Source: Syntrophales bacterium | GTDB lineage: Bacteria > Desulfobacterota > Syntrophia > Syntrophales > UBA2210 | Reading direction: 5' to 3' | Assembly: GCA_963666365.2 (NCBI GenBank) | Contig: CAXXNF010000001.1 | Location: 32,001 to 96,000 of the forward strand | DNA length: 64,000 bases | Part shown: positions 13,066-52,311 of the stretch, one piece after another | Position numbering within the stretch: position 1 is the first letter of the stretch | How the letters are laid out: each line of letters opens with the position of its first letter | Program-made: the position numbers and the translations under genes | Notes under the pieces: model-generated | Told to the model about the DNA's origin: nothing | Databases searched by the model: none | What the model saw: the letters and a program-made list of their open reading frames with translations, nothing else

Positions 13066-13103
13066 GACATTTCGTTCAACGGTGTTTCACATTTCATCGA
13101 ATG
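13066..13103 (+). promoter_or_regulatory. Putative enhancer (bEBP upstream activating sequence), copy 1
   Basis: CGTTCAA-N17-TCGAATG, conserved with 17203-17244 (-) although flanking DNA has diverged. Confidence 0.55.
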
Positions 13104-13207: not shown

Positions 13208-13224
13208 TTGGCACGGTTCTTCCT
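13208..13224 (+). promoter_or_regulatory. Sigma-54-like promoter (-24 GG, variant -12 CC)
   Basis: TTGGCACGGTTCTTCC; conserved in the second copy. Confidence 0.6.
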
Positions 13225-13272: not shown

Positions 13273-13548
13273 ATGAAACGGACACTTCAGACACTGATCA
13301 TGGCGGTCTTCGTGGTTCTGATTACGGCATCCTTCAGCTTTGCCGAGTATGTGGCATCGACGGCGGGGAATTTCCCCTACTTCCAGCTGGGCTGCCTGGT
13401 GGTGGGCGGTCTGATCATCACCTCTCTGAAGCACAAATACTCCAAGATCTACATGAGCGAAGCCGTCGGTTCCTTCGCGCTCTACGCGGTGCTGGTGGCG
13501 CTCTTCACGGCCCCGGTGGTGGATGCGCTGAAGGCCCTGGTCAGCTAG
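13273..13548 (+). CDS. 91-aa membrane protein (signal-peptide-like N-terminus + two hydrophobic helices), copy 1
   Basis: RBS AAGGAGG; 87/91 aa identical to 16761-17036. Confidence 0.85.
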   Translation: MKRTLQTLIMAVFVVLITASFSFAEYVASTAGNFPYFQLGCLVVGGLIITSLKHKYSKIYMSEAVGSFALYAVLVALFTAPVVDALKALVS

Positions 13549-13867: not shown

Positions 13868-13917
13868 ACCCTGCCGGCGGCGCCGGTTGCCTCGTCGATA
13901 AAACCCGGGTATATATA

Positions 13918-13953
13918 ATCCCCCCTTTTGATGGAAAAAGGGGGGATTTTTTT
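13918..13953 (+). terminator. Rho-independent terminator
   Basis: ATCCCCCCTTTT..AAAAGGGGGGAT stem followed by T tract. Confidence 0.85.
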
Positions 13954-13959
13954 GTGTCT

Positions 13960-14160
13960 TGGGAGGTGATGTGTTACTGACAATGCCATATCGTATGCGA
14001 TAACTTATTATATTTACTCACTGCTTCCTCCTTTTCCTTTTATTGCAGCTCACAACTCTGAGCAAGGATAGCAGTGTGGGCCGCCTATTTGGCCATACCC
14101 ATTCGGGACTGGCACAGCCAATCCCACATGACCACACCCACAGGGTGTGGGTTTCCAGAA
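13960..14160 (-). mobile_element. IS200/IS605 family relic (end hairpin + truncated tnpA 5' end)
   Basis: GTG at 14021 after AAGGAGG reads MSKYNKLSHTIWHCQ*HI, resembling the TnpA N-terminus; hairpin CCACACCCACAGGGTGTGG at 14132-14150. Confidence 0.75.
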
Positions 14161-14670
14161 TCAACTAAAATATCGTTGTATAAGAAGAATGTTCCCATGG
14201 CGCAATTTTATAATCTCCTCCAATCAGTCCTGATTCTTTGCCTCTTGATACTGTGTACGAATTGGCTAAAACAACGCTGCATTGTCTCGCAGGTACATGC
14301 GTTTGCAGGAAATGCCGATGCGATGATGGATGGAATGATTATCGGCGAGTTCGGTGCATGTGCATCCCCGCATTTACGAACGGCTCTTCCTTTGCGTTTT
14401 TGCAATGATAAATCAATAAGGACACTTGAAATGGACCTTTTCATGCCCATTCGCGGAAGCCGCAGAGGCAGCAGAGGCGCACTTTTCCTCGTGTTCGATA
14501 ATGCCGCCGCGCGGATTTGGGCAACAGCTCGTTGACGCCCGACTCCATTTCTATCTATTCTGGAGCCGGCGAAGCATTAATGCTACCCAAAAGAGTTCAT
14601 ATTCAAAGAATGATGTTATGAATGCTATGACCATCTCTGCCTTTTTTCTCTTGTTAATACTGTATTCATT

Positions 14671-14800
14671 GCATACCGAAAAAGTCAGCGACGTGGCCTG
14701 TCTGGGAGGTAGGGAGATACCAATCACGCTGGGCGATGCAGCGGGCCGAAAACAGCCGGATACACCGCAACGTTCTCTGCACTGCACTGGCTTGTTATGC
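14671..14800 (-). other. Integron attC site (130 bp)
   Basis: R'' GCATAAC overlapping the stop codon; L'' AGTGCAG vs L' CTGACT with one extra G; 5-nt spacers; R' GGTATGC (one mismatch to GTTATGC). Confidence 0.75.
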
Positions 14801-15160
14801 ATTTTTTAAGAATTCAATGGCTGAGTCTTGTTCTTCGGTTGAGAAACACTTCATTTCAATATTCTTGAATATCCTGCCCTCAATATTTACAATCATTTCT
14901 ATCCACTTTTTGTCAGTTATTACTGCTGCTTTCTTTATATTTGATATTCCAACCTTAAATATATATTCGAACTCATCTACTATTGCCGATAGTTCGATAC
15001 CCTCAAATGAATCGATTCTCTCAAAAAGAACAATGTTGCCATATTGCTCAATTTTTTTCTTTGCATCAGAAAGAACCAAAGACATCTCTCTTTCTGTAAT
15101 TTTTCCTGACATACAGAAAGCAACAGCATTATCAATTCCAATTTCCATCGTTTTTAACAT
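14795..15160 (-). CDS. STAS/SEC14 (SpoIIAA-like) domain protein, integron gene cassette
   Basis: AVAFCMSGKIT..KAAVITDKKW..AIEFL; AT-rich; bounded by GTTATGC and an attC site. Confidence 0.8.
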   Translation of the reverse strand: MLKTMEIGIDNAVAFCMSGKITEREMSLVLSDAKKKIEQYGNIVLFERIDSFEGIELSAIVDEFEYIFKVGISNIKKAAVITDKKWIEMIVNIEGRIFKNIEMKCFSTEEQDSAIEFLKNA

Positions 15161-15187
15161 AATTATCTCCTTTCCATCAGTCTGGAT

Positions 15188-15230
15188 GCATAACAATCAA
15201 GCTCACCGACGGCAATGGAGCGCAGCGGCA
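15188..15230 (-). other. Right half of a second attC site
   Basis: CCGCTGCGCTCC..CGGTGAGCTTGATTGTTATGC (apical segment, L', R'); left half missing. Confidence 0.65.
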
Positions 15231-15293
15231 GATATAATATTTTCTTCAACCATTATTGTTTGATCAAATAAGTCATGATATCTTCATACCGGC

Positions 15294-15659
15294 TTGCAGG
15301 TCGGTATCTTCTGCCCTACAAGGTTAAAAGAAAAAGTGAGAAAGATCATTTATGCCCTTCCCACGTTACAGAGTCATACCTTTTATTCCCTGGGACTTTG
15401 TCTCAGGGAAGCAACGACACTGCAAGTTGGAAACATTCTTTCCGATCGGGGTCTGGTTCACATCCATGCGGGGAAAGGGTCGCTGGATCGGACAGTCCCC
15501 TTACCCAAAATCACCCTTTTAGTTTTACGTGAGTACCATAAAAGTAACCGCAATCCAGAATGGATCTTTACTGCTTGGGTCACAACGGAGGCAAAAATGC
15601 ACAATTTGCAAAAGCACATGTCAGCGACAGCGTCGGAATATCCAGCCAAGGGGAGGTAA
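15294..15659 (+). pseudogene. Tyrosine recombinase/integrase fragment
   Basis: YSLGLCLREATTLQVG (catalytic R replaced by C), HAGKGSLDRTVPLP, RNPEWIF; lacks the C-terminal HxxR/Y motifs. Confidence 0.75.
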
Positions 15660-15660
15660 T

Positions 15661-15736
15661 GGGTTCAGGCCGTTGACTATTGACTGGATGTGGAGACGAT
15701 TCGTTAATCTCAGTCAATAGTCAAGGTCCGATCACC
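15661..15736. repeat. Inverted repeat / REP-like element
   Basis: Perfect 14-bp arms TTGACTATTGACTG (15673) and CAGTCAATAGTCAA (15711). Confidence 0.8.
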
Positions 15737-15757
15737 AATAGACCCCCTAAATATATA

Positions 15758-15800
15758 TTGACCACATGTATGGCATGTATTAGTATGTAACACATGTAAA
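15758..15800 (+). promoter_or_regulatory. Sigma-70 promoter with probable TA operator
   Basis: TTGACC-N17-TAGTAT; CATGTA at three positions overlapping the promoter. Confidence 0.6.
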
Positions 15801-15820
15801 ATAAATTTCGAGGTTACACG

Positions 15821-16039
15821 ATGTCTAAAATATTAAATATCCGACTTACCGATGAAATATCGGCACGTCTCGACTATCTGGCCGAAAAAACAAAACGTCC
15901 TAAAAGCTTCTACATAAAAGAAATGCTCGAGCAGCATCTTTCTGAGTACGAGGACGCCTACCTTGCCCTTGATCGCCTGAATGACAGAAACGCCAGGTAT
16001 TTATCGACAGAAGACGTGGAGAAGATCCTTGATCTATAG
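15821..16039 (+). CDS. RHH-type antitoxin (RelB-like)
   Basis: LNIRLTDEISARLDYLAEKTKRPKSFYIKE RHH motif; acidic C-terminus; overlaps the toxin gene. Confidence 0.85.
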   Translation: MSKILNIRLTDEISARLDYLAEKTKRPKSFYIKEMLEQHLSEYEDAYLALDRLNDRNARYLSTEDVEKILDL

Positions 16040-16304
16040 TATCAAATGGCATGAAAAGGCAATTAAGGATCTTCAAAAGATTGACAGCCAAAAGCAAAAA
16101 AAGGTCGTGGACAGGATAAAAAACTATCTTTCAAAAGATCCTCTTGGTTTAGGAAAGCCACTCAAGGGAATCTTCAAGGGCCTGTATCGTTACCGTTATG
16201 GATCGTACCGGATAGTATACGCCATCGACAGAAATGCTTTGATTATATTGATATTAAGAATAGCGGACAGGAAAGGTGTGTACAAAGATCCCACCCTTAA
16301 ATAA
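16029..16304 (+). CDS. relE: RelE/ParE family toxin
   Basis: TTG start; GKPLKGIFKGLYRYRYGSYRIVY..RKGVY. Confidence 0.9.
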   Translation: MIYSIKWHEKAIKDLQKIDSQKQKKVVDRIKNYLSKDPLGLGKPLKGIFKGLYRYRYGSYRIVYAIDRNALIILILRIADRKGVYKDPTLK

Positions 16305-16371
16305 AACGCTGCCGGACCTTCGTCTTTTATGGGAGAAATTAGTATTGATGTCCCCTTAATTTCCATGAAGC

Positions 16372-16406
16372 AAAAAATCCCTCCTTTTGAATAAAGAAGG
16401 GATTTC
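16372..16406 (-). terminator. Rho-independent terminator
   Basis: AAATCCCTTCTTT..AAAGGAGGGATTTTTT on the minus strand, downstream of 16451. Confidence 0.8.
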
Positions 16407-16760: not shown

Positions 16761-17036
16761 CTAACTGACCAATGCTTTTAATCCGTCGATAACCGGGGTC
16801 GTGAACAGGGCAACCAGCACTGCATACAGTGCAAAGGAACCGACGGCTTCGCTCATGTAAATCTTGGAATATTTGTGTTTGAGTGACGTGATGATCAGAC
16901 CGCCCACCACCAGGCAGCCCAACTGAAAATAGGGGAAGTTGCCTGCAGTGCTCGCCACATACTCGGCAAAGCTGAAGGATGCCGTAATCAATACCACAAA
17001 TGCTGCCATGATCAGTGTCTGAAGTGTTCGTTTCAT
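16761..17036 (-). CDS. 91-aa membrane protein, copy 2
   Basis: RBS AAGGAGG; four aa differences from copy 1. Confidence 0.85.
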   Translation of the reverse strand: MKRTLQTLIMAAFVVLITASFSFAEYVASTAGNFPYFQLGCLVVGGLIITSLKHKYSKIYMSEAVGSFALYAVLVALFTTPVIDGLKALVS

Positions 17037-17083: not shown

Positions 17084-17100
17084 TGGAAAAACCGTGCCAA
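17084..17100 (-). promoter_or_regulatory. Sigma-54-like promoter, copy 2
   Basis: TTGGCACGGTTTTTCC. Confidence 0.6.
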
Positions 17101-17202: not shown

Positions 17203-17244
17203 CATGCATTCGATGAAACGTTGAGTGCCATTGAACGGAATATC
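17203..17244 (-). promoter_or_regulatory. Putative enhancer, copy 2
   Basis: CGTTCAA-N17-TCGAATG, 139 bp upstream of the -24 GG. Confidence 0.55.
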
Positions 17245-32154: not shown

Positions 32155-32364
32155 ATGATACTACGCGGAAAGAAGAGCGGAACAACGAGACTCGAAGACA
32201 TCGTCGCCATGATTCGGTTCGATGGCACGGTTCTCTGCATGAAATGCGCCGACGACAAGGATCTGGGCGGCGTCATGTCGGATGAAGATCTGATTACACG
32301 GCAAAGCATCAGGGATGACGACTGCTATATCTGCGACCGCTGCGGAAAAGAAATACGGGGATAA
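32155..32364 (+). CDS. Small Zn-ribbon-like hypothetical protein
   Basis: CMKC...CDRC pairs; starts 3 bp after leuB. Confidence 0.65.
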   Translation: MILRGKKSGTTRLEDIVAMIRFDGTVLCMKCADDKDLGGVMSDEDLITRQSIRDDDCYICDRCGKEIRG

Positions 32365-32476
32365 ACTATTCTATCCCCGCCCTCAGAACCGGTAAAAACG
32401 CCTGTCGCTGATTGAGCTCGTCGCCGGAGCGCTCACCTCATCGATTTACCGCGACAGAGGGCTTTTTGCGAAACCG

Positions 32477-45774: not shown

Positions 45775-47148
45775 CTAGTCCCGCTCGAAAGATATACCGT
45801 ACTTTTCGAGCTTTCTTTCGAAGGTTGGTCGTGAAATTCCAAGAATTTCACATAACTCCCCTTTGTTTTTGTCGGTTTCTCTCAGCACTTTCCGAATGTG
45901 CATCTCCTCGACCTCGTCAAGAGTCATGAACCGTCCCGATTCCGTCCGGCCGCTTGTGCGGGGTTCACTTAGCCCCCCCTCTTTTTCTCGGAGAAGTTCA
46001 GGAAAATCACCCTTTCCCAATATTTGGCTCTTTGCGACCACCACGGCGCGCACCAGCAGATTCTCGAGCTCTCTGATATTGCCCGGCCAGCTGTAGTTGA
46101 GAAATACCTCCATCATTTCATCGGAAATGCCTGCAACTCGCTTATGGAGATCCATATTGATCTTCGTTAACAGATAGTCGACAAGATGAGAAATATCTTC
46201 ACGCCGCTCCCTCAGGGGCGGTATTTTTACAGTAACAATATTAAGGCGGTAATAGAGATCGTCTCTGAACTTTCCCTCCTTCACCATCTCCTCGAGATCT
46301 CTATTGGTTGCCGCAATCACCCGGGCATTCAGTTTGACACGATCTTTTCCACCCACCCGCTCGAATTCGCGCTCCTGCAAGACGCGAAGCAACTTAGCCT
46401 GAAGATTGACCGACATCTCGCTGATTTCATCCAAAAATACGGTCCCGAATCTTCCAAGTTCGAATTTGCCCTGTTTTCTGGCGATGGCGCCGGTAAAAGA
46501 GCCTTTTTCGTGCCCGAAGAGTTCCGATTCGAGCAATGTTTCCACGATTGCGGAACAGTTAACGGCGATGTATGGCTCATCGCGGGAGGTATTGTGATGG
46601 ATCACCTTTGCAATCAATTCCTTTCCTGTACCGCTTTCACCCTGAATCAACACCGTCGCCCGGTTCTGGGACACCACGCCGATCGTTTTAAAAATTTCCC
46701 TCATTCGATCGCCGTTGCCGATAATATCTCCCAGCTTGAAGTCTCTGGCAGGTTCCATGAGCAGGCTGTCGATTTTTCTTTCCATTTCGACGGTCTTCAA
46801 GGCTTTTTTTATGGCGATGTCCAGTTCATCTATATTGATCGGCTTATGAATATAATCGAAGGCGCCCAACTTCATGGCATTGATAGTGGTTTCCATGTCA
46901 TGGTGGGCGGTAATCATAATGACCTTGGCGTTCTCATTCTCCTCCTTTAAATCTTCAAGCACGGTAAACCCGTCAATATCGGGGAGCCGTATGTCCAGCA
47001 CCACCACATCAGGCAGCCGCTCTACATACCGGTTCAATCCCTCGGTCCCGGTGGAGGCGACAGACACATCGTACCCTTCTTCCGACAGATAGAGCTCCAG
47101 TGACTCGCGAATCGATTTATCATCATCAATAACAAGAATTTTCGCCAT
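45775..47148 (-). CDS. Sigma-54-dependent (NtrC-family) response regulator
   Basis: REC domain, GESGTGKE, ESELFGHEKGSFTGA, WPGNIREL, C-terminal HTH. Confidence 0.96.
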   Translation of the reverse strand: MAKILVIDDDKSIRESLELYLSEEGYDVSVASTGTEGLNRYVERLPDVVVLDIRLPDIDGFTVLEDLKEENENAKVIMITAHHDMETTINAMKLGAFDYIHKPINIDELDIAIKKALKTVEMERKIDSLLMEPARDFKLGDIIGNGDRMREIFKTIGVVSQNRATVLIQGESGTGKELIAKVIHHNTSRDEPYIAVNCSAIVETLLESELFGHEKGSFTGAIARKQGKFELGRFGTVFLDEISEMSVNLQAKLLRVLQEREFERVGGKDRVKLNARVIAATNRDLEEMVKEGKFRDDLYYRLNIVTVKIPPLRERREDISHLVDYLLTKINMDLHKRVAGISDEMMEVFLNYSWPGNIRELENLLVRAVVVAKSQILGKGDFPELLREKEGGLSEPRTSGRTESGRFMTLDEVEEMHIRKVLRETDKNKGELCEILGISRPTFERKLEKYGISFERD

Positions 47149-47151
47149 AGT

Positions 47152-49827
47152 TTAATCCTTGGGAACAGTGAAAGCGGCGCCGGCATCTCCGTCGCTCCTC
47201 AGTTCTTGTCGACTCTCGGAGTAGGGGAAGGTCACAACAACCTTCGTGCCCTGCGATTTAACACTGAGAATCTCTATGCTTCCCTGATGAAGATCTACGA
47301 TCTTCTTTACCTGCGCAAGTCCCAGTCCGGTACCGTACTGCTTTTTTGTGAAGAAGGGGTTGTAAATTGACGGCATGTCCTCCTCGTCGATGCCGCATCC
47401 ATTATCCACTATTTCCACGGTCAGTGAGTGTGGGTCGTCATCGTTCAGACGGGTTGACAGGGTAAGCTCGCCCCCTTCGCCCATGGCATCAACGGCATTA
47501 TAAATAATGTTCAAAAATGCCTGCGCCAGAAGTGCTGGATCTACAACGATGGGCGATAATTTTTTCTCATAGCGCTTTCGAATTAAAATTTTCTTGTCTA
47601 AGAGCACCATATCAGCCATATGGAGGGCGTGGTCAAGAATCGCCTCGATCTCGGAGAACTCCTTTTGTGGATCATCAGGCTTGGCATAGATCAAGACGTC
47701 ACTGACGAGCTTCTCCAGGTGCCCCACCTCCCGTGCCGCTATTTTAAAACGTTTCAGATCGTTTCCGCCGGGCGTCATCCGCTTCTCCAGAATTTGAAGA
47801 CTCATTTTTATTGATGACAGGGCGTTCCTCAATTCATGGGCGATCCCCGCGGAGAGCTGCCCGAGGGCGGCAAGCTTTTCATTCTCAAAACTTTTTTTCT
47901 CCAGCTTCTTCAAAGCCGTGATATCCTGCTGAACAAGAATGATTCGGTCGGAACCGGGAACGGGACGCGGGGTAATGAGGAGATCTCTCTTTGACCCGTC
48001 GCGGGCAAGAGCTCTTATCTCGTAGGGGGTGAAGTCGCCCTGTTTCCCGTCTTCCCACTTTTGAAGCACGAATTCCCTGTTTTCGGGATCGACAAAATCG
48101 GCAAAATGCTTCCCCTTCAGTTGAGGTATTCCCGATACGCCTTCACGTTTGATATTATCCCGGCTCACATAATTAATGACGCCTTCGCTGCTCAGATCGT
48201 AGACCTTCTCCGGCATCGTATCTATTATGGACTGCAGATAATTATAGAGTTCCTCGATTTCCTTTCTCAACCGGATATTCTCATCAAGCTCGTTCTGGAG
48301 AGTCTCTGCATATTCCTTGAGACTCAGCTCCATTTCTTTTTCTTTGGTTATGTCCTGAAGAGTTTCTATCGCAGCGGTAATGCTGCCGTTTTCGTCGTAA
48401 ATCGGCGCCGCGAGAAAATAGAGATACCGTTCTTTGCCTCCAAGGTTCTCATAATGATCGAATGCTTCAAAGGCGCCTTCCACCCGGTCTGATTTTTTCA
48501 CCTCCTTTGTCCCGTAATAGTGTTCGAGAATTTCAAAACTCTGATCAATAATGATATCGGCAACCAGGGGGCGTGCATCCTTGTAAAGAGGCATGTAGTG
48601 CTTGTTCGTCCCGATCATCTCCGCGGCCGTGTACCCTGTCAGATCGGCGCAGGCCTTGTTCCATAGAATTACCCTGTGATTCGTATCGATCACCATGGTG
48701 GGGATCGGTGAGCCTTCAATAATGCCCTCGATGGTTTTGTGCTCCCGGATAAGCCGTCCCTGCCACTCTTCCCGCTCTTTGAGGCGCTTCAGTTCTTCCT
48801 CAGCCCTCAGTTGTCTGGTGGCGACAAAGCCGATTACAAAGGCAGCGGCTATCACGATTATGATAAGCCCCATGGCGCCCGCCATTATATTAATAAACGC
48901 CTTACGCATGAGATCTATCACTCTTCCATAGGGGGTCACAAGGACAAGGGTCCATCGATCACCCTTGACGTGCACGGGGGCATAAGCCACGATCTGCTTC
49001 TCCTCATTTCCCATGGCATCGCGGATCAACCACTGATCGTATCCGGCATTTCCTTTCAGAAAAACCTCTCTGAGTTGAGAGACCGCCGCATTTCCTCCCG
49101 TTACGAGGACGCTCACGTCCATGCCGATCAAATAGGGGTTGGAATGCGCCATGAAGGTTCCCCCCTTTTCGATAAGCCAGCTGTCGGTAAATTCACGGCG
49201 GCTCAGTGGACCTGCATAGCGGTCTATCACTGCGTCAAGCAAGAGAAAGGCTATCACTGATCCTGTATACTGCTTGTGATGATTATATTTAGGGACGGGT
49301 ACCGCTATTGCCGATTCGGTGGCACTCATGCAGTTCGACCCCAGAGGCAGACGAATCAGCGGCGTGACCGTCGATTCCGGCAGAAGGCCGGCTTCTCCCA
49401 AGGCGGTCTGCCATGCATCGAAACAGGCTTTTGTTTTTACCTTCTTTTCCGGCCAGAGGAATACCAGTTCTCCCGCTGAATTGGTCATTCCAATAAGGCG
49501 CACCTGATGACCCACATTGTCATAAAGGAGCTTCAGAAGTTCCTTTGTCTTCTCCACATCGTAGTTTTCCCTTTCCGCAATATTGACAAAGGCGGAAAGG
49601 TTTTCTCTCGCTCCGTCAATCAGATCCTCGATACCTGCGGCCGCGGCATTTGCTATCGCCACATGCTGGTCTCCGAATTGCCTTGCGATGTCTTTTTCCC
49701 TGGCATGATTCACCGTCAATGCCAAAAGGAGAATAAGAATGATCAGCGACGCCGTTGCCAACCAGACGGAAATATTCATATCAAGTCTGAAAGTCCGCCT
49801 TTTTTTTTCTCTGTCTCTCGCATTCAT
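47152..49827 (-). CDS. Cache/PAS sensor histidine kinase
   Basis: Two TM helices flanking a Cache domain, PAS domains, AHELRN, DNGCGI, GTGLGL. Confidence 0.94.
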   Translation of the reverse strand: MNARDREKKRRTFRLDMNISVWLATASLIILILLLALTVNHAREKDIARQFGDQHVAIANAAAAGIEDLIDGARENLSAFVNIAERENYDVEKTKELLKLLYDNVGHQVRLIGMTNSAGELVFLWPEKKVKTKACFDAWQTALGEAGLLPESTVTPLIRLPLGSNCMSATESAIAVPVPKYNHHKQYTGSVIAFLLLDAVIDRYAGPLSRREFTDSWLIEKGGTFMAHSNPYLIGMDVSVLVTGGNAAVSQLREVFLKGNAGYDQWLIRDAMGNEEKQIVAYAPVHVKGDRWTLVLVTPYGRVIDLMRKAFINIMAGAMGLIIIVIAAAFVIGFVATRQLRAEEELKRLKEREEWQGRLIREHKTIEGIIEGSPIPTMVIDTNHRVILWNKACADLTGYTAAEMIGTNKHYMPLYKDARPLVADIIIDQSFEILEHYYGTKEVKKSDRVEGAFEAFDHYENLGGKERYLYFLAAPIYDENGSITAAIETLQDITKEKEMELSLKEYAETLQNELDENIRLRKEIEELYNYLQSIIDTMPEKVYDLSSEGVINYVSRDNIKREGVSGIPQLKGKHFADFVDPENREFVLQKWEDGKQGDFTPYEIRALARDGSKRDLLITPRPVPGSDRIILVQQDITALKKLEKKSFENEKLAALGQLSAGIAHELRNALSSIKMSLQILEKRMTPGGNDLKRFKIAAREVGHLEKLVSDVLIYAKPDDPQKEFSEIEAILDHALHMADMVLLDKKILIRKRYEKKLSPIVVDPALLAQAFLNIIYNAVDAMGEGGELTLSTRLNDDDPHSLTVEIVDNGCGIDEEDMPSIYNPFFTKKQYGTGLGLAQVKKIVDLHQGSIEILSVKSQGTKVVVTFPYSESRQELRSDGDAGAAFTVPKD

Positions 49828-50256
49828 GCCTATGGGGCCTATGGAAATACCTTTTAATTTTATGGGGGACCTACGCTTTTTCAGTCAGAGTCTTCTTCAT
49901 CTTCCTCATGACGCGACTTGATTGCAATAAATACATACACCCCCACTGCGGCGCCAAGGGAAATGAGCAGCGTTGCAAGCCCGCTTTCAATGCCCAGCAC
50001 CCACTTACAAAGGAGCCATGCCACAAGATATGTTACCAAAGTCAAGATTTCCTGCATGCCACACCCTCGCTCACGTTGTCACAAGACCATGTAGAGATTT
50101 TCATAAGGGGCTTGCTTCATCCTCAATGCACTGACGGACCTTATCCGGATCGCCACGATTCCAACCGAGTACTTCTCAAATAGCGCAACCCGTCATTATT
50201 GACGGGTTGATACTACAGGCGACGCAGGTTATTTTCAATAAAATTATCCATTCTAC

Positions 50257-50307
50257 TTTTCGTTCAATGCAATGAGTCAATTTAAAAAAACGTTCAACGA
50301 AAGCATG
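50257..50307 (+). promoter_or_regulatory. Putative enhancer upstream of atpE
   Basis: CGTTCAA at 50261 and ACGTTCAACGAAAGCATG at 50290, similar to the motifs upstream of both 91-aa operons. Confidence 0.5.
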
Positions 50308-50399
50308 CAGAACCATCCTTATGGAGGCGCCAATCAAAAGCGCCATAGTCTCTTTTAATACGAATGGTTGCATAGCAATGGCTTCTTGCTGCTTCACAA

Positions 50400-50415
50400 T
50401 GGCACGGCTATTGCT
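50400..50415 (+). promoter_or_regulatory. Sigma-54 promoter
   Basis: TGGCACGGCTATTGCT matches the TGGCAC-N5-TTGC consensus. Confidence 0.85.
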
Positions 50416-50516: not shown

Positions 50517-50894
50517 ATGAAAAGGAAGTCAAGAAAACTGCTCTTCGGATTACTGGCAGCAATAGTGATCCTCATGGCGACATCGCCTGTTGCCCTTGCC
50601 GCTGATGCAATTCCGGCGGAAGGCGCCCCGTTAATGAAGGTAATCTTTTCCGTCGGAGCTATGATAGCGGCAGGTATCGCCATTGGGTGCGGAACCATCG
50701 GCGCCGGTGCCGGTATCGGTAATGCGGCAAACGGCGCCTGCGGCGCGGTAGGTAGAAACCCCGGCGTCCAGGGAAAAATCCTCATGACCATGCTGGTTGG
50801 TATGGCCATGGCCGAGTCCATCGCGATTTACGCCCTCGTCGTTTCGTTGGTTCTTTTGTATGCGAATCCCTACAAGAGTTTCCTTTTTGGCTAG
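50517..50894 (+). CDS. atpE: F0 ATP synthase subunit c (orphan) with signal-like N-terminal extension
   Basis: GAGAGIG, GRNP loop, MAESIAIYALVVSLVLLYANP. Confidence 0.93.
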   Translation: MKRKSRKLLFGLLAAIVILMATSPVALAADAIPAEGAPLMKVIFSVGAMIAAGIAIGCGTIGAGAGIGNAANGACGAVGRNPGVQGKILMTMLVGMAMAESIAIYALVVSLVLLYANPYKSFLFG

Positions 50895-52273: not shown

Positions 52274-52311
52274 AGAGAGGCCGAACGCCGTAACGTTCGG
52301 CCTCTCTTTTT
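52274..52311 (+). terminator. Rho-independent terminator
   Basis: AGAGAGGCCGAACG..CGTTCGGCCTCTCT followed by T tract. Confidence 0.9.

Follow-up and report, generated by a model that had tools for sequence, protein, structure and literature searches.

Introduction

Response regulators of the NtrC/AtoC/ZraR class combine a receiver, an AAA+ domain with a GAFTGA-type loop and an HTH_8 domain, they are paired with a PAS/HisKA kinase, and they act from an enhancer located 100-150 bp upstream of a -24/-12 promoter that is divergent from the regulator operon. All these features, including a candidate enhancer, recur in the stretch of Syntrophales DNA studied here (hereafter the window, i.e., the 64,000 bp of G000:C1:32001-96000; the assembly G000 comprises 4.0 Mb in two contigs). 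In this window, an operon comprising a 58-residue open reading frame (ORF), a sensor kinase and an NtrC-type activator diverges from an operon encoding an atpE-like F-type c subunit (hereafter c1) and a Cache-domain membrane protein. The best NCBIfam matches of the kinase and the activator, AtoC/AtoS and ZraR/ZraS, all fall short of their respective cut-offs (487 bits versus a cut-off of 714 for AtoC). Unlike in the described systems of this class, the predicted targets are a c subunit, an output-less Cache protein and multi-copy cassettes for small membrane proteins (a 91-residue hairpin protein, p91, and an AtpZ-like protein).

In the E. coli PspF regulon (the pspA operon and the distant pspG), one activator serves separate sigma-54 loci that encode small inner-membrane proteins, the regulon responds to membrane energetics, and PspF itself has no receiver domain. 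As compared with this regulon, the present system possesses a kinase, its cassettes are multi-copy and its targets are without sequence relation.

Regarding the ATP synthase, the number of ions needed per ATP depends on two properties of the c ring, its stoichiometry and its ion specificity and, to our knowledge, both are generally treated as fixed per species. The c genes of Acetobacterium woodii stand together in the atp operon, one of them encoding a duplicated hairpin. Like our genome, this organism has more than one F-type c paralogue, the products of several such genes being combined in a single ring (F1Fo structure 4BEM), whereas the paralogues studied here are single hairpins encoded at separate loci, one of them with its own predicted signal-dependent promoter. 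The canonical atpZ-atpI-atpB-atpE operon for Fo has its counterpart in the atpZ-atpI-atpB genes located beside the regulator module in relatives, and the cassette protein is a PF09527 paralogue; in contrast with this operon, an inverted regulator operon separates atpE from atpB, and the cassettes have no AtpI. Similarly to the AtpQ and AtpR proteins of N-ATPase operons, as presented in the part of PMC2881411 available to us, an AtpQ-family (PF09527) protein and a second small hydrophobic protein occur here near a c subunit; unlike them, p91 matched no Pfam family, the gene order is reversed, and the cassette is free-standing and multi-copy, with its own sigma-54-type promoter.

In the parts of the published articles available to us, supplements aside (PMC4641369 and PMC12316311 among them), we found no account of an ATP-synthase c subunit under sigma-54 control, or of the present module. 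The novelty would reside in the regulon link between atpE and dispersed multi-copy cassettes, by way of a shared and positioned half-site.

We propose, with a probability of about 0.7, that the adjacent two-component system acts via half-sites on the sigma-54 promoters of a shared regulon, which on the comparative data is a lineage-specific sigma-54 regulon of Syntrophales. In this proposal, the membrane kinase (47152-49827) would phosphorylate the NtrC-type activator (45775-47148), which would then bind repeated TTTCRTTCAAY half-sites whose centres lie ~140 and ~118 bp ahead of sigma-54 promoters. Short operons of two kinds, each closed by a terminator, would thereby be switched on. The first kind would be the single-copy atpE(c1)-Cache operon and the second the several dispersed hairpin/AtpZ-like cassettes, five of which bear a promoter in G000, two of them in the window. 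The most likely output would be a signal-dependent supply of a particular form of the c subunit along with small membrane accessory proteins. We infer the binding of the activator, the sigma-54 dependence and all the steps from transcription to function from sequence comparison. A search for sequencing runs gave three entries, all from one study, and none of them was recorded as RNA.

Two promoter families share one half-site at one distance

An earlier note on the window had linked three loci through TGGCACGG boxes placed at 13208 (+), 17100 (-) and 50400 (+), each preceded by CGTTCAA. The box of atpE stands where it was said to be, and those of the two cassettes start one base away, at 13209 (+) and 17099 (-). 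The distances claimed (137, 139 and 140 bp, respectively, from the start of CGTTCAA to the first G of the GG of the -24 element) proved correct. The three second motifs quoted in the note were found as written, and their GCATG tail is not kept in orthologues. Pfam bears out the gene calls of the note. The composite CGTTCAA-N(125-135)-TGGCACGG occurs three times in the window and never in 100 dinucleotide-preserving shuffles of it, which served as the chance control. There are five TGGCACGG boxes in the window, including those at 32223 and 52168, which were rejected as promoters, both being within coding sequence and without a half-site; a small Cys-x-x-Cys-rich ORF (32156-32365) contains such a box as coding sequence, not as a promoter.

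The two cassette loci must be counted as a single observation, because they are paralogous copies of one cassette (~83% identity over ~700 bp), in which the enhancer, the promoter and the 5' leader are conserved and the spacer has drifted, a footprint that speaks for the shared regulon. Since the loci are paralogous, the evidence from the window is modest, and the case rests on the relatives. In the window alone, the enhancers of the first cassette and of atpE are 58% identical (shuffles, 50 ± 4%), and the atpE and cassette spacers are identical at chance level (48% versus 53 ± 4% for shuffles).

In the relatives, TGGCAY-N5-TTGC[AT] is kept in 26 of the 28 sequences upstream of atpE orthologues (one of which is only 11 bp long), and the atpE promoter of G000 itself has the -24/-12 form expected for sigma-54 (GG and GC ten bases apart, TGGCAC-N5-TTGCW). 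Once aligned on the promoter, the atpE upstream sequences read TTTYGTTCAAT-N11-ATTGAAYGAAAYGTTMAAC, with the first half-site starting at -144..-137 in 24 of 25 orthologues. Calling a half-site when at least 9 of 11 positions match the TTTCRTTCAAY-type consensus, we found a plus-strand half-site at -143..-138 in 23 of 26 atpE promoters and an inverted one (ATTGAAYGAAA) at -119..-116 in 20 of them.

The genes for the hairpin protein offer a second family of promoters. Among 30 upstream regions, 28 display TGGCAYG-N4-TT[TC]C[AT], with a conserved TGGCACG -24 box, and these 28 were used for the half-site counts. A weight matrix built solely from 25 atpE orthologues, leaving G000 out, was used to scan 200 bp of the cassette promoters, and its best match fell at -139..-142 in 17 of the 28. 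Half-sites (at least 9/11) were present at -141..-138 in 20 of these promoters, and a second, direct half-site at -122..-114 in 14. Hence, two otherwise unrelated promoter families share one asymmetric half-site, one distance to the promoter and a second site about two helical turns away.

Such a resemblance could be historical, a single promoter region having been copied in front of both gene families with no co-regulation today. The spread of the cassettes by duplication as compact enhancer-promoter-gene units would fit this view, as would the modest similarity between atpE and the cassettes in the window alone. However, identity outside the half-sites and the -24 box does not exceed chance, and the sequence and distance of the half-site are kept in both families and in two order-level lineages, the pattern expected under selection; we regard this history as very improbable.

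Specificity, synteny and co-occurrence point to the adjacent regulator

The earlier note had called for a genome-wide search for the motif, the spacer and TGGCAC. When we scored the enhancer at positions -147..-133 of 1342 loosely defined promoter-like sites of G000, the six best scores were those of atpE and of five hairpin cassettes, to which the signal is specific in this genome. Further regulon members were rejected, the next composite scores being at most 11.2 bits with poor promoter boxes. Searches of five other genomes with a strict composite, TTTYRTTCAAY-N(124-132)-TGGCAY, gave eight matches versus none for the reversed control and, judging by coordinates, seven of the eight lie upstream of c1 or hairpin genes.

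The regulator operon (58-residue ORF, kinase and NtrC-type activator) is divergent from atpE-Cache in 21 of the 30 short loci and 14 of the 16 long loci compared, one of the latter with a 3.5-kb insert, and the same layout is found in all three loci of a second order-level lineage that came from a phylum-wide sample. The 58-residue ORF was located by tblastn between atpE and the kinase (21/30 short loci and 14/16 long loci), and atpE lies directly upstream of the Cache gene in 28 of 30 orthologous loci, the other two being cut by an end.

The panel used for co-occurrence comprises 61 genomes, which, being related, are not independent samples. The activator has a single-copy orthologue (66-88% identity) in 51 of them and the Cache protein is matched in 51, strongly in 49; orthologues of both occur together in 47 genomes, only one of them in six and neither in eight. 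The hairpin gene is present in 40 of the 61 genomes, often in 2-6 copies; the NtrC orthologue accompanies it in 38 of these 40, and the hairpin gene is absent from seven of the eight genomes that have neither NtrC nor Cache orthologues. In five genomes (G002, G005, G007, G013 and G103), the hairpin and AtpZ-like genes come directly after the gene for the NtrC orthologue and in its orientation, and in G050 a hairpin gene lacking the signal peptide and an AtpZ-like gene follow atpE-Cache in a single operon.

Among the outcomes that, according to the earlier note, could refute it are the absence of the motif upstream of atpE orthologues and the failure of the gene families to co-occur across genomes. 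Neither of these two was observed (23/26 for the half-site and 26/28 for the promoter in the former case, 47/61 for NtrC together with Cache in the latter). Its central claim, that one NtrC-type system co-activates the c-subunit/Cache and the hairpin/AtpZ-like operons, is probably right in view of the comparative evidence of conservation, specificity, synteny and co-occurrence.

The proteins required are encoded in G000. The activator matches PF00072, PF00158 and PF02954, with GESGTGK at residue 170 and GSFTGA at residue 216, i.e., the domain set of an NtrC-type enhancer-binding response regulator. There is one PF04552 match for rpoN (7.6e-65; G000:C2:821340-821816).

Several observations weigh against this shared regulon. 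First, eight of the 28 hairpin promoters have no half-site (at least 9/11) at -141..-138, and the best match to the matrix falls outside -139..-142 in 11 of the 28. Second, the orientation of the second half-site differs, being inverted in the atpE family and direct in the hairpin family, and in G000 the second half-site of atpE is displaced by ~10 bp, about one helical turn, from its position in orthologues. Third, the sigma-54 dependence of the hairpin promoters is less certain than that of atpE, because none of the 28 has GC at -12. Fourth, the two-component system is not beside atpE in two of the 16 long loci, and 13 genomes with the NtrC orthologue, many of them fragmented assemblies, show no hairpin gene. 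Fifth, G000 has 27 strong sigma-54 activator genes (Sigma54_activat matches), and the choice of the neighbouring one among them depends on synteny and co-occurrence in related genomes that are not independent. Sixth, as regards function, no atpZ, atpI or atpB was found in G000, either with the PF00119 and PF09527 hidden Markov models or by tblastn with the proteins of relatives, and the entry of c1 into an F1Fo complex is putative in this organism. The Fo genes may have been truly lost or may fall in a gap of the assembly; the atpB gene of the sister genome G001 is on a 2.7-kb contig.

As to the -12 region, it is canonical in the window for the atpE promoter only (TGGCACGGCTATTGCT), the two cassettes having TGGCACGGTTCTTCC and TGGCACGGTTTTTCC, with no GC at -12. 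All 28 hairpin promoters, those of the window included (13220-13224 and 17088-17084), have TT[TC]C[AT] there, and never TTGC. A deviation kept so strongly points to a function, though it is not the textbook consensus. Changes at -12 alter how tightly the closed complex is held, and the non-consensus -12 might tune the cassettes differently from atpE.

The half-sites might also be real and yet be bound by another protein, whether a different sigma-54 activator or a non-activator, the adjacent system controlling only atpE-Cache or neither operon. The number of activators in G000 is in keeping with this explanation, and so are the remoteness of the hairpin cassettes from the regulator in G000 and the case of L052, where the activator gene upstream of the hairpin cassette is that of another paralogue (43% identity). 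The direct succession of the NtrC orthologue and the hairpin/AtpZ-like pair in five genomes argues to the contrary, along with its divergence from atpE in the long loci (14/16) and in the second lineage (3/3) and its occurrence in nearly all the hairpin-bearing genomes (38/40). We thus hold the involvement of another protein to be distinctly improbable, and retain the neighbouring two-component system as the probable regulator of both operon types.

Relation of the proposed regulon to the ATP synthase

The c1 protein displays the hallmarks of F-type c subunits, namely a two-helix hairpin, a Gly-rich helix 1, an R-N/Q-P loop and a helix-2 carboxylate. Its GxGxGxG motif, RNP loop and AES..Y are conserved, with G62/G64/G66/G68, R80-N81-P82 and E100 invariant in 24 sequences. 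The solved structures closest to it are those of F-type c rings (4BEM, 2WIE and 1YCE); among the solved matches, chain J of 4BEM (C1 subunit) ranks first (2.3e-23) and chain A (C2 subunit) eighth.

In G000, the c1 gene is outside any atp operon. The F1/stator genes form an operon at C2:1.400-1.406 Mb, in the order atpFFHAGDC as judged from ORF sizes and PF00006/PF00231 matches, and a V-type operon is also present. A second F-type c paralogue, c2 (123 residues with a signal-peptide-like extension; G000:C1:1522215-1522406, minus strand), is encoded alone beside a gene for an RF-1-domain protein, with no sigma-54 box in the upstream sequence inspected. The two paralogues align over their full length (HHalign E = 1.9e-72). 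The c2 protein keeps Q...TES..Y, which was seen in 10 of 20 chosen regions from relatives, while the Q position of c1 varies (N, T, S, H or Q), its AES..Y and GAC being conserved.

In relatives, atpZ (PF09527, 61 bits), atpI (PF03899, 64 bits) and atpB form an operon. In four of them (G010, G017, G021 and G002), atpZ-atpI-atpB ends at the 3' end of the inverted regulator module, and atpE comes next on the strand of atpB, whereas G046, which has no module, has the usual atpB-atpE pair. Since atpZ-atpI-atpB abuts the module in relatives, the regulated c gene seems to have once been the final gene of the Fo operon, from which its own two-component system would have cut it off, taking control of it. 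The view of the earlier note that the system is separate from the atp operon is thus true of G000, where c1 is not in the atp operon, and fails for these four relatives.

According to one explanation, c1 is an ordinary F1Fo c subunit whose gene was split from atpZ-atpI-atpB, the regulon gating the amount of Fo. This agrees with the succession of atpB, the regulator module and atpE on one strand in the four relatives, with the atpB-atpE pair of the module-less G046, and with G005, in which the PF00137 matches are to c1 only. It agrees less with the well-conserved c2 paralogue of G000 and of half of the 20 chosen regions, nor does it fit easily with the Q...TES..Y kept by c2 at a position that varies in c1. 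We consider this explanation possible, if on the unlikely side.

These two paralogues also evoke a rotor switched by a signal, in which a cue perceived by the Cache/PAS kinase leads to the sigma-54-dependent induction of c1, a subunit with a variable ion-site residue, which replaces the constitutive c2 or mixes with it in an alternative or mixed rotor. The hairpin/AtpZ-like cassettes and the Cache protein may then assist, and F1Fo may change its ion specificity or the number of ions that it uses per ATP. Such a switch is tentative, and we deem it unlikely as a complete account. If true, it would mean that an organism at the thermodynamic limit remodels its c ring under regulation, along the lines of the c-ring remodelling suggested in the earlier note: syntrophic degraders of fatty acids and aromatics live on very small free-energy steps, for which the ions-per-ATP ratio is critical. 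A conserved two-component sigma-54 switch on one of two c paralogues, to which the co-regulated accessory cassettes add, makes a conditional re-equipping of the ATP synthase directly testable. The present data hint that energy-starved syntrophs adjust their ATP synthase on a signal.

Alternatively, the products could act outside the ATP synthase, in a separate membrane complex where a ring of c-type hairpins would join the Cache protein and the small hairpin and AtpZ-like proteins. This complex could be part of a response to membrane or proton-motive-force stress, or a co-sensor feeding back on the kinase. The fold of the Cache protein is a ligand-binding one with no output domain attached, the G000 assembly has no a-subunit gene, and all targets are small membrane proteins at dispersed sigma-54 promoters, a layout resembling that of the PspF regulon. 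In contrast, c1 lacks none of the features of a functional F-type c subunit, and the solved structures nearest to it are F-type rings; in four relatives, moreover, the module and atpZ-atpI-atpB are physically linked, and AtpZ-type genes are otherwise atp-operon genes. A separate complex therefore appears quite unlikely to us. Under the shared regulon that we favour, whatever the complex served, the uncharacterised activator would be provided with a predicted regulon of small size and with an enhancer motif that is well defined. Two unnamed families would also receive their first context, i.e., the 91-residue hairpin (670 clusters) and the stand-alone Cache protein (at least 748 clusters).

The hairpin/AtpZ-like cassettes

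The earlier note spoke of two distant operons and of AtpZ/AtpI proteins, and the number of operons and the AtpI identity need revision. G000 has six copies of the hairpin gene, five with the same enhancer and promoter and a sixth with neither. The AtpZ-like gene follows in four of the five promoter-bearing copies and is absent after the sixth; in relatives, 22 of 30 hairpin loci have it next. What was duplicated is a compact unit that extends from the enhancer to the terminator.

As for the AtpI identity, the AtpZ-like proteins of both cassettes match PF09527 (AtpZ/AtpQ, the so-called gene 1), and neither matches the AtpI/UncI family PF03899 at E <= 0.01. The 84-residue protein scores 27.4 bits with TIGR02230, under the cut-off of 46.7. 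For comparison, the canonical atpZ of a relative scores 61.1 bits with PF09527, and the true AtpI of G010 scores 63.6 bits with PF03899. The evidence for a role in c-ring assembly or as a chaperone concerns AtpI, not AtpZ/AtpQ, in the part of PMC2881411 available to us.

The relatives of p91 fall into 670 clusters, all unnamed, and the Protein Atlas returned unnamed clusters only. In Pfam, p91 matched no family at E <= 0.01, hence no AtpR family, and the 64-residue hairpin form of G050 gave only sub-threshold noise with Pfam and NCBIfam. Profile comparison yielded a match of p91 to c1 that is too weak to be called (44% probability over 83 columns), as against 3.8% to the AtpZ-like protein and 0.4% to the 58-residue ORF. 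The predicted complex of mature c1 and mature p91 scored 0.00 versus a mark of 0.32, and so lends no support to their association.

Table 1. Coordinates of the features of the window, grouped by operon.
Feature	Position	Strand	Remarks
Enhancer half-site 1, atpE promoter	50258..50268	+	TTTCGTTCAAT; ~141 bp upstream of TGGCAC
Second enhancer element, atpE promoter	50288..50307	.	AAACGTTCAACGAAAGCATG: plus-strand CGTTCAAC and minus-strand TTTCGTTGAAC half-site
Canonical sigma-54 promoter of atpE	50400..50415	+	TGGCACGGCTATTGCT
atpE-like F-type c subunit c1, 125 residues, signal-peptide-like N-terminal extension	50517..50894	+	PF00137, 62.8 bits
Output-less double-Cache membrane protein, 433 residues	50949..52250	+	PF02743, 63.3 bits
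Intrinsic terminator ending the atpE-Cache operon	52274..52307	+	14-bp stem and T run
Conserved 58-residue ORF, two transmembrane segments, first gene of the regulator operon	49881..50057	-	no Pfam or NCBIfam match
Sensor histidine kinase, 891 residues	47152..49827	-	weak dCache_1, PAS, HisKA, HATPase_c
NtrC-type sigma-54 activator, 457 residues	45775..47148	-	receiver D52, Walker A GESGTGK, GSFTGA loop, HTH_8
Cassette 1 enhancer	13069..13102	+	ATTTCGTTCAACG, then TTTCATCGAAT 21 bp on (direct repeat)
Cassette 1 sigma-54-type promoter	13209..13224	+	TGGCACGGTTCTTCCT; -12 element non-canonical
Hairpin protein p91, 91 residues, signal peptide and two transmembrane segments	13273..13548	+	no Pfam or NCBIfam match
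AtpZ/AtpQ-like protein, 84 residues	13613..13867	+	PF09527, 34.9 bits (cut-off 26.6)
Cassette 1 intrinsic terminator	13917..13948	+	
Cassette 2 enhancer	17209..17241	-	ATTCCGTTCAATG ... TTTCATCGAAT
Cassette 2 sigma-54-type promoter	17084..17099	-	TGGCACGGTTTTTCCA
Second 91-residue hairpin protein	16761..17036	-	96% identical to the first copy
Second AtpZ/AtpQ-like protein, 81 residues	16451..16696	-	PF09527, 37.2 bits
Terminator-like hairpin after cassette 2	16379..16400	-	

Neighbouring features and minor observations

The sixth hairpin copy of G000 (G000:C1:500957-501229, minus strand), without enhancer, sigma-54 box or AtpZ-like gene, sits directly behind the stop codon of another gene. In the window, the two convergent cassettes flank ~2.4 kb (13950-16380) containing an ORF for a ParE-type toxin (15981-16304), and short segments of this interval recur elsewhere in G000 near other cassette copies. 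The cassettes may therefore lie in recombination-prone or mobile regions.

An IHF-like site (WWTYAR-N4-TTR) is present at -42..-40 in 11 of the 28 hairpin promoters versus 1.9 expected, and none was found in the spacers of the 26 atpE promoters, so that it was rejected as a shared element of the architecture. Genes flanking the module were likewise rejected as members of the unit, namely the SH3 gene located 3' of the NtrC gene and the patatin-like and CoA-ligase-like genes located 3' of the Cache gene, which are not conserved beyond the genus.

The interval from the 58-residue ORF to the atpE enhancer contains a perfect inverted repeat of 10 bp, CAACCCGTCA-TTAT-TGACGGGTTG (50186-50209), which overlaps sigma-70-like boxes of the two strands and might serve the regulator operon as an operator or as a leader hairpin.

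The Cache protein consists of a transmembrane segment, a periplasmic dCache_1 domain, a second transmembrane segment and a 25-residue acidic tail, with no output domain, and a BLASTP comparison revealed no significant similarity to the kinase's own sensor. In the complete genome G042, its orthologue (G042:C1:584613-585911) has seven in-frame stops and is likely a pseudogene. The neighbouring c1 gene remains intact, and 400 bp further on there is another c-type gene.

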